Shown here piece after piece: positions 6,221-16,681 of a stretch of DNA of 39,664 nt. Source of the stretch: Solobacterium sp. UBA3691 (lineage in GTDB: Bacteria; Bacillota_I; Bacilli_A; Erysipelotrichales; Erysipelotrichaceae). The notes under the pieces are model-generated. The model was given only the letters and a program-made list of their open reading frames with translations. It had not been told where the DNA came from and did no database searches. A program made the position numbers and the translations under genes. The stretch is taken from positions 1 to 39,664 of the forward strand of contig DFIS01000080.1 in NCBI GenBank assembly GCA_002372175.1, written 5' to 3'. How positions within the stretch are numbered: position 1 is the first letter of the stretch; every line of letters begins with the position of its first letter.

Positions 6221-6284
6221 AGTATTCCTGCCATTTCTAAGCCCATGGGCAATCTATGGATATTGTACCAACGGATAAGAGAAA

Positions 6285-6326
6285 GAGGCAATAAAACAAA
6301 ATACTCCTGTTGGACAAGAGTATTTC
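6285..6326 (-). terminator. Candidate weak rho-independent terminator downstream of the TIR gene 6554..9184 and upstream of the M16 peptidase gene
   Basis: An 8-bp stem AAATACTC/GAGTATTT (6299-6306 and 6318-6325) has an 11-nt loop. On the minus strand it is followed by UUUGUUUUAUU. The stem is AU-rich, so confidence is low. Confidence 0.3.
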
Positions 6327-6553
6327 TTTGCTGTCTCTCCCTGTTACTGCGGGACAGATATCGATTTACAGGACAATCAGCCACGGGGATGGGATGCATC
6401 ACATGACAAGTAACACAAACTTCTTCAATGCGTATTTCAGCAGAGAGTATCCCGCTAGATGTATGAAGAATTATCAAAAGATGATCAACTTCCGTACCGA
6501 TGCTCTAAGACATCATATTTCTTATTTAGAAACTGTAGAATTATAATTGCTGA

Positions 6554-9184
6554 TCAATTGATTTTCACCCACATAGCTGGACGGATCATGTACTCGTATT
6601 TTTGTTTAACAATCGGAGAATATCCATCAACGTATATACCATACAAGCCAATGCCTCCATCATGTACTCCAAAAGCAGCAGTATAAGGTTCTTGACCGGG
6701 CGAGCGCAGCCACCAATTAGAACCATTAGTGACATCGTTGACATAAACACCTTTCCCGAGTGTATATGGTGTTGCTTTTGCCAATCTTTCAGCATCAGAA
6801 TTAAAATACTGCTGAGCTTCCTGTATTGATAACAGGAATATCTTATCCTGTGTATCTTTTCCCGGATCTGTATTGTACTCCGGATTCTTGTCTGCTGTCA
6901 CAGTGCTTGTTTCAATGAGTGATTGTTCTTCACCGGTAAATGCTGATGAAATAAAATAACTATTCAACCATTTTCGAAGTGAACAAGTTTGCCATGTACC
7001 ATTCTCCCTTGATGTATCATATGGCTGACTGTCCAATCCGTATTCACTGATCAAAAGGATCCTGTTATCTTCTTTTGCTAAAACTTTCCATGTAATAGCT
7101 TCTTTGCCATTAGAAGTACTCGCATCCTGTTCATATGAACCAAATGTTACTATTTCTCCGGGCTTGGCAACCATAACTGTAACATACGGATTTTCTTCTC
7201 TAATAGATGCTGCCAGTTCAGCGCTGTCTTTATATCCATTCAAACCCATCAATATCTCATATGCGCCGGCATAATCTCCATTTTCTCGCATAGCAATTGC
7301 GGATTTATACTTATTGCTTGGAATTACCGTTGTTCTTATGATCACAAAAGCAACCACACAAAGAACCAAAACAGCAGTAACTATGCCAATTATGCTCTTT
7401 TTCTTTTTACGGGAGATTTCTTCCTGTTTTCTCTGAATCGCATACTGTCGCTCTATTTCTTTGCGATTCTCTTCTGTTAATCTGTCTATCTCCTTCTGGC
7501 AATACTCTGAATAACCGCCGCTTTCCTGATAACCCTTAAGCGAATCAAATACTGTTTTTGCTTTTTCAAAAGACGTTATATCTGTTGCGGCATTCATCGC
7601 AGTAATAGCTTGTGTATAGTCCAGATTTCTCCTTTGCTCTGCCTGCTCAGCCAATGCCTGCACTTCTTTATCTGCTTGTATAAGGAAAGCAGCATAATTA
7701 CTCTTCACCTTAGAAATACTGTTCTCATCTGTCTTTTTAGCAAGGGTGATACGCTCGTCCAAAATACGGTTTAATTCTGAGAGTTCATTTTCCAGCTTCT
7801 TCTTTGTTTCACCTTTAGCGTATTGTAATGCTCTGGTCAGATTACGTTCTGATTCCAATTCTTTTTGCAGCTTTGATTTTTGAATTCTTCTGCTTTGAAG
7901 ATAAGAGTCAAATCCAAGATCATATTGATATTGTCTCAGAATAGCTTCTCTGTCCAGGTATCCGTCAATACTGTATTTCTGTACTGCTGCATTAATATGA
8001 TCATTATCTTCCTGTCCTGCTTTTACTCGCTGGATGCCGGCATGTTTATACTCTTCTTTGTAATGATTAAACAAAGCTTCAAGATTTGGCTGACGGTTTT
8101 TCAGCAGAAGTTTTCCAAGATATGCTTCTGCAGATTCAGGCTCCTGATTCAGTGCTTCTTCAAAGAAACTATCGGCTTTATCCCATTCCTTGTCCTCAAG
8201 AGCTATCATGCCTCTTTTGACAAATGCCGAGGCACCACCTGAAGAATTGTTCTGAGTAACCGCCTTCTGAACAAACGGGGCTGCAGTCTCCTTTATAACC
8301 ACCTTTTTGATTCCACGAACCACATCATTGATAAATCCAATCTTACTCATGTCCTGTGCCTGGAGATGTGAGAATTCTTCAGGCAGGTCATATGCATCCA
8401 TATCTCTGTAGCAAGGAATCAGCAGCTTGGTACGGTCTTTTTTCATCAATTTCAGGAAACGTGACCATTCGTTCTTTACCCATACTGCATTGAAATACTC
8501 CGGTCTAGTGCCAATCACCAGCATTACTTTTGCTGTATTCAGTGCTGAGAAAATATACGGTTCATATTCTTTTCCCAGTTTATCTTCCAAAGTAATAGCC
8601 GCAAAGAATACTTTAAATCCTTCACGTGTCAGTTGGTAATAGATTTCATTGGCAATCACACTATCCTGTGTTCGTTTCCCAGATTCATCCGTCTCCTTAT
8701 AGCAGATGAAAACATCATATGGATCTTCTTTCTGTGCAAGGGCAAGGATTCCGCGCTGGATCTCATCGATCTCTTTAGCCTGAGCTTCATAGATTCCTCT
8801 TTGGGCAGTATCTGCGTAATATAATGCGTTCTTATAATCTTCATCCGCAGTGACTGATTCATATGACGCACGATGGCATGTCGGAACTCTCTTATACGTC
8901 ACCGGATCTTCAACATACTCAATACCGTACTTACAGAGGATAAGCCCCCAGTATGCTTCAGCTTCTGTTTCACTCCTCTGAAGGATCTTTTCATAGATCT
9001 CTGCTGCTTTATCAAACTCAGAGCGCATACGAAGCGTATTTGCTCTGTTGAAAAGCGTCTGCAAACCTTCATCATGAACAGAAGGAATTGTTTGTCTGGT
9101 ACCGCAGAACTCACATTCACATACCCTGCTTCCCTCTATAACGGTTAAATCACCGCCGCACATCTTACATTTCCATACCACCAT
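6554..9184 (-). CDS. Zinc-ribbon + TIR-domain + coiled-coil + single TM + C-terminal DUF6273-like domain protein (876 aa from the ATG at 9184; the ORF track extends to 9214)
   Basis: The N-terminus CKMCGG...CECEFCG forms a zinc ribbon. The TIR core DVFICYKETDESG...FKVFF...IFSALNTAKVMLVIGTRPEYFNAVWVKNEWSRFL spans about 8315-8722. A long K/E/Q-rich coiled-coil follows. A KKKK-SIIGIVTAVLVLCVVAFVIIRTT TM helix spans about 7328-7396. The C-terminal domain carries ITWKVLA, CSLRKWLN, KIFLLS and WWLRSPG motifs. AAGGAGA precedes the ATG at 9184, and this start aligns with the paralog start MVALKCKMC. Confidence 0.85.
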   Translation of the reverse strand: MVVWKCKMCGGDLTVIEGSRVCECEFCGTRQTIPSVHDEGLQTLFNRANTLRMRSEFDKAAEIYEKILQRSETEAEAYWGLILCKYGIEYVEDPVTYKRVPTCHRASYESVTADEDYKNALYYADTAQRGIYEAQAKEIDEIQRGILALAQKEDPYDVFICYKETDESGKRTQDSVIANEIYYQLTREGFKVFFAAITLEDKLGKEYEPYIFSALNTAKVMLVIGTRPEYFNAVWVKNEWSRFLKLMKKDRTKLLIPCYRDMDAYDLPEEFSHLQAQDMSKIGFINDVVRGIKKVVIKETAAPFVQKAVTQNNSSGGASAFVKRGMIALEDKEWDKADSFFEEALNQEPESAEAYLGKLLLKNRQPNLEALFNHYKEEYKHAGIQRVKAGQEDNDHINAAVQKYSIDGYLDREAILRQYQYDLGFDSYLQSRRIQKSKLQKELESERNLTRALQYAKGETKKKLENELSELNRILDERITLAKKTDENSISKVKSNYAAFLIQADKEVQALAEQAEQRRNLDYTQAITAMNAATDITSFEKAKTVFDSLKGYQESGGYSEYCQKEIDRLTEENRKEIERQYAIQRKQEEISRKKKKSIIGIVTAVLVLCVVAFVIIRTTVIPSNKYKSAIAMRENGDYAGAYEILMGLNGYKDSAELAASIREENPYVTVMVAKPGEIVTFGSYEQDASTSNGKEAITWKVLAKEDNRILLISEYGLDSQPYDTSRENGTWQTCSLRKWLNSYFISSAFTGEEQSLIETSTVTADKNPEYNTDPGKDTQDKIFLLSIQEAQQYFNSDAERLAKATPYTLGKGVYVNDVTNGSNWWLRSPGQEPYTAAFGVHDGGIGLYGIYVDGYSPIVKQKYEYMIRPAMWVKIN

Positions 9185-15738: not shown

Positions 15739-15905
15739 GATGATCCCTCCATTTCCCCTTATAATTGATTAAGATTATCTATTTATCGCAATTCGCTCAA
15801 TCTGGACTAAAACGTGTACTTTTTTGCTTGGTAATATGTCTAAATCAAATTTTAACATATACCGCTCTTTATGCGCATAACAATAAGGTACTTAGAAGCT
15901 AATAC

Positions 15906-16567
15906 TCACTGTTCAATAAGTACACGTTTGCAACACCCCCTCCTTTCCCGGGATTCTGTGTGCTCATGTGTACTTTTTCTGTGTTTTATTGCTTTATACC
16001 TGAAGGTAGATTTGGGCATTCCGCATAATTCTGCAGCTTTCCCCGTACTGATCTCTCCTGCATTCCAGCTTTGGCATACTCTTCCAAAAGCTTCCGGTAT
16101 CTCTTTCTCCGGTCTGCCGAAGCGTACGCCTCTTGCCTTCGCTGCAGCAATGCCTTCCGCCTGTCTCTGCCGTATATTTGCTCTTTCGTTCTCTGCCACA
16201 AAAGATAATACCTGCAGTACGATATCTGCCAGGAATGTTCCCACCAGATTTTTCCCCTTCTGGTATCCAGCAGAGGCATATCTATGACCACAATGTCTAT
16301 CTTTCTGTTCTTTGTCAGATACCTCCACTGTTCCTGGATCTCTTCGTAGTTTCTTCCCAGTCTGTCGATACTCTTGATGTACAGCAGATCGTCTTCTTTC
16401 AGCTCCCTGCATAAGTTAATATACGCAGGTCTGTCAAAGTCCTTGCCTGACTGTTTGTCTGTAAAGATGTTGTTTGGTGACACTCCGCAGTTGATCATCG
16501 CTGTAACCTGTCTGTCCTCATTCTGTTCTTTTGTACTGACACGTACATATCCATAGATTACTGTCAT
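15906..16567 (-). pseudogene. Small serine recombinase (resolvase/invertase family) disrupted by a single-nt frameshift
   Basis: The N-terminal catalytic domain ([20 protein letters not shown]...[12 protein letters not shown], 16567 to about 16255) is in one frame. The remaining catalytic segment plus the C-terminal HTH domain ([50 protein letters not shown]...[20 protein letters not shown]) continues in another frame, down to 15906. The junction lies in an A/G homopolymer tract, gataccagaaggggaaaaatctg, at about 16245-16267. One extra A would restore [13 protein letters not shown]. Confidence 0.75.
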
Positions 16568-16681
16568 GTGCGTCTCCTTCCGGTTCTGTGCAAGTACTCA
16601 TCCATGTTTTCTGCGCATGCATATATGAAAAAGTCACCTGTATGTAACCCTTGATTTGATACAGTTGACTTTCTTTCTTTA

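Follow-up and report, generated by a model that had tools for sequence, protein, structure and literature searches.

A recurrent, unnamed TIR-SPFH gene cassette of gut and rumen Clostridia, carried on a low-GC island of Solobacterium sp. UBA3691

Introduction

Contig DFIS01000080.1 of assembly GCA_002372175.1 (Solobacterium sp. UBA3691, Erysipelotrichaceae), analysed over positions 1-39,664 and called the window below, raises the question of why two large TIR proteins, an SPFH protein, a small membrane protein and a HEPN-like protein are encoded together between a gene for an M16 peptidase and one for a 2-hydroxyacid dehydrogenase. A preliminary description of this DNA, made from its letters and open reading frames (ORFs), had read the segment as an AT-rich island bounded by a decayed resolvase gene and as a candidate module outside any described defence or signalling system. 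Here we report that the island represents a widespread, unnamed gene cassette of gut and rumen Clostridia, of which it is one copy, probably gained by horizontal transfer, and we weigh what such a cassette may do.

Results

The cassette recurs in at least 12 independent loci

The island spans window positions 6.2-16.6 kb and comprises the features listed here, in window coordinates.

6298..6326, minus strand: terminator-like hairpin with a stem of 13 pairs and a T-run after it, in the gap that separates the TIR1 stop (6554) from the M16 peptidase start (6220)
6554..9184, minus strand: TIR1 (Pfam TIR_2 1.4e-11, DUF6273 6.3e-30)
9266..10207, minus strand: 313-aa accessory protein, with an N-terminal alpha/beta domain and a C-terminal HEPN-fold domain bearing Rx4H (R268, H273)
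10278..10967, minus strand: four-transmembrane (4TM) protein, 229 aa, with four hydrophobic segments within residues 10-118 and a cytoplasmic helical tail
10970..12820, minus strand: SPFH protein, 616 aa (Pfam Band_7_1 2.5e-37, 129 bits against a cut-off of 24)
12820..13014, minus strand: 64-aa ORF whose stop overlaps the SPFH start, aligning weakly to the ribbon-helix-helix (RHH) gene of related loci and lacking the GRTRNE motif
13153..15738, minus strand: TIR2 (Pfam TIR_2 2.9e-11, DUF6273 2.4e-32)
15809..15978, no strand assigned: candidate recombination sites and invertible segment, with arms 15810-15824 and 15915-15929 bracketing 90 bp
15906..16567, minus strand: small serine recombinase of the resolvase/invertase type, with Pfam Resolvase matches in two frames

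Related loci were gathered via TIR-family homologs at 45-59% identity and then, separately, via 4TM homologs chosen irrespective of TIR, and all loci were annotated with profiles built from each island gene. The cassette turned up in this way in at least 12 independent loci, whose sources are Lachnospiraceae, Oribacterium, Roseburia and Faecalicoccus. SPFH orthologs were found in every related locus, and the SPFH gene adjoins a TIR-family gene in the window, L020, L022 (Oribacterium sp. FC2011), L023, L024, L026 (Faecalicoccus), L032, L038, L043 (Roseburia), L044, L045 and L046. The genes follow the order RHH, SPFH, 4TM (missing only in L020) and one or more TIR-family genes, and neither order nor orientation changes among at least 12 loci, whose proteins are 45-67% identical and whose flanks are unrelated. 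All four loci that were chosen by the 4TM protein alone carry SPFH and TIR genes as well. The recurrence of one cassette in so many independent loci shows that the genes form a real module.

None of the searches assigned this module to a described system, in agreement with the preliminary description. PADLOC gave noise-level matches only, NCBIfam (June 2026) gave none above cut-off, Pfam and PHROGs assigned no core gene to a known system, and full-text literature searches returned no description of such an SPFH/TIR system.

The genomic contexts are varied. The L044 cassette lies within a conjugative element with a type IV secretion system, and cassette neighbours include PDC-S15 (FRG), PDC-S31 (DUF2971), a gene resembling type II restriction endonucleases, a DUF2726 helicase and toxin-antitoxin genes. 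Carriage by phages or prophages was considered and rejected, as the 4TM marker had no match in IMG/VR (2.9 million viral contigs); phage genomes share with the cassette the DUF6273 domain only.

Individual loci show peculiarities of their own. On the Butyrivibrio fibrisolvens plasmid pNP21 from the rumen (L047, 4925-10053), a recombinase gene is succeeded by an oppositely oriented gene free of annotation, an SPFH gene (407 aa), a 4TM gene split into two ORFs and, last, a gene for a 464-aa zinc-ribbon/TPR protein that lacks TIR and is related to a 431-aa protein of L022; the TIR module can therefore be missing from SPFH/4TM cassettes. In Oribacterium (L022, JNJM01000010.1, 400-22800), the SPFH and 4TM genes stand ahead of at least seven TIR-family genes, among them split ones that encode TIR or DUF6273 alone and one with a TM helix, together with a SIR2-like gene and its truncated copy (95% identical); this array suggests that duplication and decay are ongoing. 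Downstream of the Faecalicoccus cassette (L026, 10202-13759), four to five small (64-69 aa) and medium-sized (183-205 aa) genes alternate on one strand as an array of repeated gene pairs and have no Pfam matches.

The window copy is a low-GC insertion in core chromosome

GC content was profiled in 1-kb sliding windows, and GC at third codon positions (GC3) was computed gene by gene. GC lies at 0.34-0.45 between about 5.5 and 16.5 kb, compared with 0.48-0.54 across the rest of the window, and GC3 is 0.34-0.41 in the five island genes as against 0.55-0.60 in the flanking M16 peptidase, 2-hydroxyacid dehydrogenase and citrate-lyase genes. TIR1, the 313-aa Rx4H protein, 4TM, SPFH, TIR2 and the recombinase are all encoded on the minus strand, and all five large ORFs are intact. 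The AT-rich island with shifted codon usage, and its five co-directional genes with TIR_2, SPFH/Band_7_1 plus zinc ribbons, 4TM and HEPN-like Rx4H domains, are thus as first described. The surrounding DNA is ordinary core chromosome (citrate lyase, GntR regulators, an MscS-like channel, aconitase, GH32, holB, rsmI), and the low GC and GC3 of the island within this setting argue for its mobile, accessory status. The hairpin downstream of TIR1 is the probable 3′ end of the island operon.

No att-type direct repeats were found at the island borders, and the sole recombinase-type gene at the island is the small resolvase-type one; neither the att repeats nor the integrase of a genomic island were seen. 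At least four further metagenome assemblies contain an identical island. Exact look-ups of flanking proteins matched the same strain only, always with the island, and the closest genome is a rumen metagenome-assembled genome labelled 'uncultured Erysipelotrichaceae RUG14114' (L007; the C-terminal half of its M16 peptidase matches at 98% identity).

TIR proteins combine a nearly constant head with a varying tail

TIR1 and TIR2 score 45.3 and 44.4 bits with the TIR_2 profile (Pfam cut-off 28) and are 38% identical over their full length. The TIR1 frame can be extended to a TTG at 9214, giving an 886-aa ORF; the family N-terminus, MxxxKCKMCGG, and the gene calls of L001 support the ATG at 9184 as the start. 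Both proteins consist of a zinc ribbon, TPR, a TIR_2 domain with the motif WVKNEW, TPR again, a coiled coil and a terminal DUF6273 domain. Between coiled coil and DUF6273, TIR1 also has a single transmembrane (TM) helix (residues 608-626 in the numbering of the 886-aa ORF), directly preceded by KKKK and overlooked in the preliminary description, and one copy of a repeat of about 35 aa; TIR2 has neither helix nor repeat.

The family is large, with at least 8000 homologs of TIR1, and the TIR proteins of the cassette measure 670-1100 aa. The first ~330 residues are nearly constant (phmmer E 1e-118 to 1e-174 for full-length members), and the C-terminal half varies: it may carry DUF6273, a propeller of the WD40/RCC1 type or a domain that is not recognised, and some members have a TM helix near residue 600 whereas others have none. 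Where a locus holds several paralogs, one TM-bearing TIR protein typically stands with one or more TM-less ones, a pattern that the window fits, and all TIR proteins of L043-L046 lack the helix.

Could these TIR domains be enzymes? The motif WV(K/R)NEW was found, together with the TM helix, in 120/120 of the best TIR1 homologs, and the motif with its Glu is present in every TIR-bearing protein checked across the related loci. Among 20 TIR-bearing proteins tabulated from these loci, the motif stands at residue 235 in 19 and at 239 in one L022 paralog; in TIR1, numbered from the ATG, and in TIR2 its Glu is E239. In a marginal, motif-consistent alignment, this residue falls on the Glu of WCLMEL in the TIR domains of flax L6 and M, which is the catalytic residue of plant TIR NADases. 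Competence for catalysis, as proposed in the preliminary description, is therefore upheld as far as the invariant motif goes; the isolated TIR domain of one family member, by contrast, was inactive in vitro, a result to which we return below.

In TM-bearing members, a lysine-rich stretch is followed by the helix, by one to eight copies of the ~35-aa repeat and by DUF6273. Because the lysine-rich stretch precedes the helix, the positive-inside rule predicts that the N-terminus lies inside the cell, and DUF6273 of these members, TIR1 included, is predicted to be extracytoplasmic. The domain has a C-lectin fold, which phage receptor-binding proteins use as a diversified module for ligand binding (PMC10743442). 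A transmembrane sensing role, raised at the outset, would thus suit TIR1 and most DUF6273-bearing homologs, but neither TIR2 nor the many other members without a helix. The arrangement recalls animal Toll-like receptors, in that an extracytoplasmic ligand-binding domain, a single TM segment and a cytoplasmic TIR domain are joined in TIR1 and most DUF6273-bearing homologs. However, the polarity is reversed (TIR N-terminal, sensor C-terminal), the sensor is a C-lectin fold rather than leucine-rich repeats, the NADase-type Glu is kept and many paralogs are soluble. The resemblance is an analogy, not homology of whole proteins.

The repeat itself, with the consensus YNxAVxLMxxGxYxEAIxAFxxLxGYKDS, lies between TM helix and DUF6273 (about residues 630-665 in TIR1), is predicted to be extracytoplasmic, and differs widely in copy number among close homologs (P0004-P0121; for example P0111 and P0121).

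SPFH and 4TM are a candidate membrane platform

The SPFH protein has zinc-binding modules at both ends, three zinc ribbons at the N-terminus and three RanBP2-like fingers at the C-terminus, as well as a coiled coil, and no TM helix. Its fingers follow the pattern W-x-C-x-C-G-x-x-N-x6-C-x2-C-G, each encoded by one unit of a 3 x 90-nt tandem repeat at the 3′ end of the gene (10979-11243, units 68-81% identical). Orthologs measure 491-652 aa and differ in the number of C-terminal zinc-binding modules. The 4TM gene starts 3 nt past the SPFH stop and, across all loci that have it, lies directly downstream of the SPFH gene, so that a soluble SPFH protein and a neighbouring integral-membrane protein are kept in 11 of 12 cassettes. 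The 4TM family, of near-fixed length and lacking a Pfam model, comprises 510 clusters at 90% identity.

A comparable pairing is known from Bacillus subtilis, where the soluble SPFH protein YdjI depends on two membrane proteins, the zinc-ribbon protein YdjG and YdjH, to reach the membrane (PMC8581546; PMC9239133). Given this analogy and the conserved synteny, the 4TM protein is predicted to be the membrane anchor of the SPFH protein. Like the cassette, the B. subtilis PspA-YdjGHI system places a gene for a soluble Band_7-type SPFH protein beside one or more genes for integral-membrane partners. It differs in that the zinc ribbon resides in YdjG there and is fused to the SPFH protein here, as part of six zinc-binding modules; in addition, the cassette SPFH gene is always linked to TIR proteins, is horizontally mobile and stands outside the sigma-W stress regulon. 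No gene of the PspA (ESCRT-III) family was found in the window or in any related locus.

Upstream of SPFH, an RHH gene of 63-67 aa (VISMRMPKDML-DIDKVA-ETGRTRNEI) precedes the SPFH gene in L022, L024 and L043-L046, and its L024 copy gives a weak Arc-like match. The 64-aa ORF of the window is a divergent and perhaps degenerate version of this conserved gene for a small regulator.

An accessory slot is filled by HEPN-fold or SIR2-like proteins

An AlphaFold2 (AF2) model of the 313-aa protein, built from an alignment of 79 sequences, has a helical HEPN fold, and the protein carries a conserved motif of the HEPN type Rx4-6H: R268, H273, W166 and Y265 are invariant in 79 relatives at 20-64% identity. 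Its N-terminal alpha/beta domain resembles domain I of ribosomal protein L1. Neither this protein nor its 79 relatives matched a described HEPN family in Pfam, NCBIfam, PADLOC or PHROGs; a profile search of PDB with the protein was empty, and Foldseek with the full-length model found nothing significant in PDB. The known HEPN toxins (AbiV, the AbiA HEPN domain, ApeA, Csm6, HEPN-MNT) differ from it in that no HEPN profile matches it and in its distinct N-terminal domain. The family counted 2 clusters in a word-indexed search and 315 representatives in an exhaustive HMMER search. The protein is predicted to be an effector resembling HEPN RNases.

When loci of this family were located with a 12-sequence query, members at 25-35% identity lay within the same cassette in L031, L032, L033, L038 and L041, on contigs long enough to judge, which marks the family as a dedicated accessory; in L035 a member adjoins the recombinase. 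The equivalent position is filled in L022, L023 (twice), L024 and L044 by a single SIR2_2-like family of ~300 aa. The slot is thus optional, and at least two dedicated families, one HEPN-fold and one SIR2-like, can replace each other in it. The HEPN-like Rx4H protein of the preliminary description is confirmed as such, but it is not a core component.

FRG and DUF2971 genes are unlikely to be dedicated parts, as they match the stand-alone PADLOC candidates PDC-S15 and PDC-S31, and they are probably mere defence-island neighbours. An N-terminal coupling or sensor domain shared among the HEPN, SIR2, FRG and DUF2971 accessories was also considered and rejected (best E 0.07).

The recombinase and a candidate promoter switch

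The recombinase of the window matches PHROG DNA invertases (3e-29 and 1e-17) and is interrupted by a single 1-nt frameshift near 16256, at AGAAGGGGAAAAAT; tblastn with the intact orthologs of L020 and L024 places the frame switch at DTR|GK. Apart from this lesion, it is 51-63% identical to intact orthologs of 198-200 aa, and four other independent assemblies contain the same frameshifted gene. The decay that had been noted is therefore real, but intact orthologs of 198-227 aa recur at the same cassette end in L020, L024 and L035 beside conserved sites, so the gene is not merely a boundary marker. The second frame (15906-15990) runs ~25 codons beyond the end of the intact orthologs and through two of the three candidate sites, which suggests that the gene no longer has its original stop codon either.

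Dyad-symmetric sites with the core AAAGTRYAC bracket 90-145 bp in the window, L020, L024 and L035, in each case between the recombinase stop and the first downstream gene. In the window, the core of the sites reads AAAAGTACAC, a third candidate site (15961-15978) has the orientation of the first, and the string AAAAGTRYAC has two exact matches in the entire 39.6 kb, both within this 170-bp stretch. None of 200 shuffles reached the observed inverted repeats in the window or in L020. Strong sigma-70-type promoters lie within the segments of L020 (TTGAAA-17-TAAAAT, score 11.6 by our own scoring) and L024 (TTGATA-17-TAGAAT, 12.5); as assembled, both face away from the operon, an orientation that would be an OFF state.

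Since intact orthologs recur at the same cassette end, next to dyad-symmetric sites that bracket a promoter-bearing segment, the recombinase is more likely the DNA invertase of a phase switch. Whether expression of the recombinase-bearing cassettes is indeed phase-variable through inversion of a promoter segment of 90-145 bp is, on this sequence evidence, evenly balanced. Four observations weigh against such a switch. The inverted repeats of L024 and L035 are by themselves not above chance (57/200 and 90/200 shuffles). A consensus promoter scan of the window's segment found nothing, and our scoring gave only a weak extended -10 candidate, facing the operon. The flipped segment was not found among five assemblies, as L001, L002, L003 and L006 share the window's orientation; consensus assemblies cannot exclude a minority orientation. 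Finally, a recombinase is present in only 4 of ~13 cassettes. With its invertase frameshifted and its RHH ORF degenerate, the switch of the window may be frozen. Switches of the Hin/Gin/Mpi type likewise combine a serine recombinase of ~200 aa and C-terminal helix-turn-helix with adjoining dyad-symmetric sites around a promoter segment; the cassette differs from them in that inversion was not observed, that the window recombinase is frameshifted and that the repeats are non-significant alone in two of four loci.

Other features of the window

No Rfam family was found anywhere in the window. A palindromic cluster at 20222-20245, AAATGTATACATTT, came to attention through its likeness to the recombinase core site; it lies 50 nt upstream of a GntR/FCD regulator gene (20296-20985), beside the citrate-lyase operon, and resembles a GntR-type operator. 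The 1125-aa ORF at 22088-25465 has a single Pfam match, to the C-terminal beta domain of MscS channels, and thus appears as an unusually large mechanosensitive-channel-like protein with ~900 N-terminal residues free of annotation.

Discussion

What the cassette may do

Conserved synteny, an accessory and mobile distribution, the constant head and diversifying tail of the TIR proteins, paralog arrays and swap-in effectors of RNase or NADase type together lead us to read the cassette as an unnamed multi-gene conflict system, most likely anti-phage and of the abortive-infection type, a reading that we hold with slightly more belief than doubt.

A plausible course of events, in which we infer the membrane platform, the sensing, the TIR activation and the effector firing alike, would be as follows. 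The 4TM protein would hold the SPFH protein at the membrane, in the role that YdjG and YdjH play for YdjI, and the two would form an oligomeric platform. The variable tails (DUF6273, WD40 propellers, unrecognised domains) would act as sensors, with DUF6273 outside the cell in TM-bearing paralogs such as TIR1 and inside in TM-less ones such as TIR2. Ligand binding would cluster the TIR heads on the platform and turn on their NAD+ chemistry, be it NAD+ depletion or signal production, and the neighbouring effector, here the putative HEPN RNase, would then be licensed to arrest the cell. In recombinase-bearing cassettes, the invertase might flip the promoter segment and make expression phase-variable. 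A more ambitious form of this proposal, which we regard as possible but doubtful, is that the cassette represents an unrecognised class of innate-immune receptors: Toll-like-receptor-style proteins and soluble paralogs that survey the cytoplasm, an SPFH/4TM platform, a swappable HEPN/SIR2 suicide effector and an ON/OFF state that a dedicated invertase sets across the population.

Several points tell against reading the cassette as a defence system. Its anti-phage function is something that we only infer from the genes. In a survey of in vitro NADase assays on 160 TIR domains, the isolated TIR domain of Eubacterium eligens EUBELI_RS07950 is listed with the product 'None' (PMC9092222 Table S2), and this family member is 43% identical to TIR2 over 400 residues; on that result, TIR might serve as a scaffold or require activation. 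The HEPN and SIR2-like accessories have no sequence-detectable sensor domain in common, which leaves a shared second-messenger receptor unsupported. As to the accessory status of the island, the closest genome (L007, at 98%) is represented by a 4-kb contig that stops short of the M16/dehydrogenase junction, and other relatives in the genome collection are at most 43% identical.

Many of the TIR domains from gut metagenomes of children that the same survey calls 'Inactive' (Tables S1 and S2) belong to this family (for example META5C32A2CF_326430, MTIFKCKMCGG...); they received the label because they lie close to one inactive domain, that of E. eligens. The TIR family is thus common in human gut data and is currently written off as inactive.

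Alternative explanations

The strongest alternative, still an unlikely one, is a non-immune module for envelope surveillance or surface sensing, in which SPFH and 4TM work as in YdjGHI, the TIR proteins are non-enzymatic scaffolds for oligomerisation that use their lectin-like domains to signal the state of the cell wall or surface, and the neighbouring enzymes act as regulators and not as toxins. It draws on the role of the nearest characterised SPFH relative in membrane stress, on the in vitro inactivity of one family TIR domain and on the lectin-fold domain and repeats that TM-bearing members present to the cell wall. However, neither PspA nor any other stress-response gene occurs in any locus, and not one of the 120 close homologs, nor any TIR-bearing protein checked in the related loci, departs from the catalytic-Glu motif. 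The patchy distribution, low GC and carriage by an integrative and conjugative element and a plasmid also speak against it, as do the paralog arrays, fast-varying tails and swap-in HEPN/SIR2 enzymes, which are hallmarks of conflict systems.

Inter-bacterial recognition or kin discrimination, with outward polymorphic lectin domains reading the surfaces of neighbours and TIR, HEPN and SIR2 enzymes giving a self-limiting or antagonistic response, is less probable again. It would account for the polymorphic extracytoplasmic C-lectin domains, for large paralog arrays, as in Oribacterium with at least seven TIR or DUF6273 genes, and for the possible phase variation, typical of surface-exposed molecules. 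On the other hand, TIR2, all TIR proteins of L043-L046 and many others have no TM helix, so that many of the sensor domains are expected to be cytoplasmic; neither a secretion system nor immunity-gene pairs were seen in the loci, and the effector-type enzymes carry no export signals.

Thoeris, to which the preliminary description had likened the island, is the closest system in logic: one or more TIR proteins with a conserved catalytic Glu stand beside one effector, SIR2-like genes appear in sister loci, and the contexts are accessory and island-like. A divergent Thoeris, with several ThsB-like TIR sensors and one ThsA-like effector, would also explain the weak profile similarity to ThsB, ThcB4 and the SIR2 region of ThsA. 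Membership was nevertheless rejected, and this explanation is highly improbable, as the profiles fall far below their cut-offs (PADLOC ThsB1 E 0.0012, 16 bits; NCBIfam ThcB4 25.9 bits against 220) and the island encodes no ThsA, be it of the SIR2-SLOG or of the Macro-plus-TM type. In sister loci, the SIR2-like accessories align to part of the SIR2 region of ThsA (E ~1e-3) and have no SLOG, and no signal-receiver domain of SLOG or Macro type was found. The cassette TIR proteins also differ from those of Thoeris in their zinc-ribbon/TPR head, coiled coil and lectin or propeller tail, and the SPFH, 4TM and RHH core, obligatory in the cassette, has no counterpart there.

Chance co-location of unrelated genes on a decaying mobile element, suggested by the frameshifted recombinase and degenerate RHH ORF of the window copy, is scarcely credible and effectively refuted by synteny, given the order and orientation kept in at least 12 loci with unrelated flanks, the tight junctions (64-aa ORF stop overlapping the SPFH start, SPFH stop 3 nt from the 4TM start) and the five intact large ORFs.

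Significance

TIR-based conflict systems are already known; new here are an unnamed TIR-SPFH system, an undescribed HEPN family and a candidate invertase switch. Present catalogues of defence systems derive mainly from Proteobacteria and Bacilli, and if our reading of the cassette as a conflict system is true, they would be joined by a widespread one that is particular to gut and rumen Firmicutes (510 4TM clusters, at least 8000 TIR-family matches). SPFH/flotillin-like scaffolds would gain a role in bacterial immunity, and a bacterial TIR protein would be seen coupled to a sensor outside the cell, paralleling the architecture of animal Toll-like receptors. The 313-aa proteins would constitute a new HEPN family, and DUF6273 would acquire a cellular role beyond phage receptor-binding proteins. 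Phase variation, if it occurs, would tie the cassette to the coexistence of phages and bacteria in the gut. The system would also explain thousands of hypothetical proteins annotated as 'TIR domain-containing' or 'DUF6273 domain-containing' in microbiome data, which the survey of TIR domains classed as 'inactive'.

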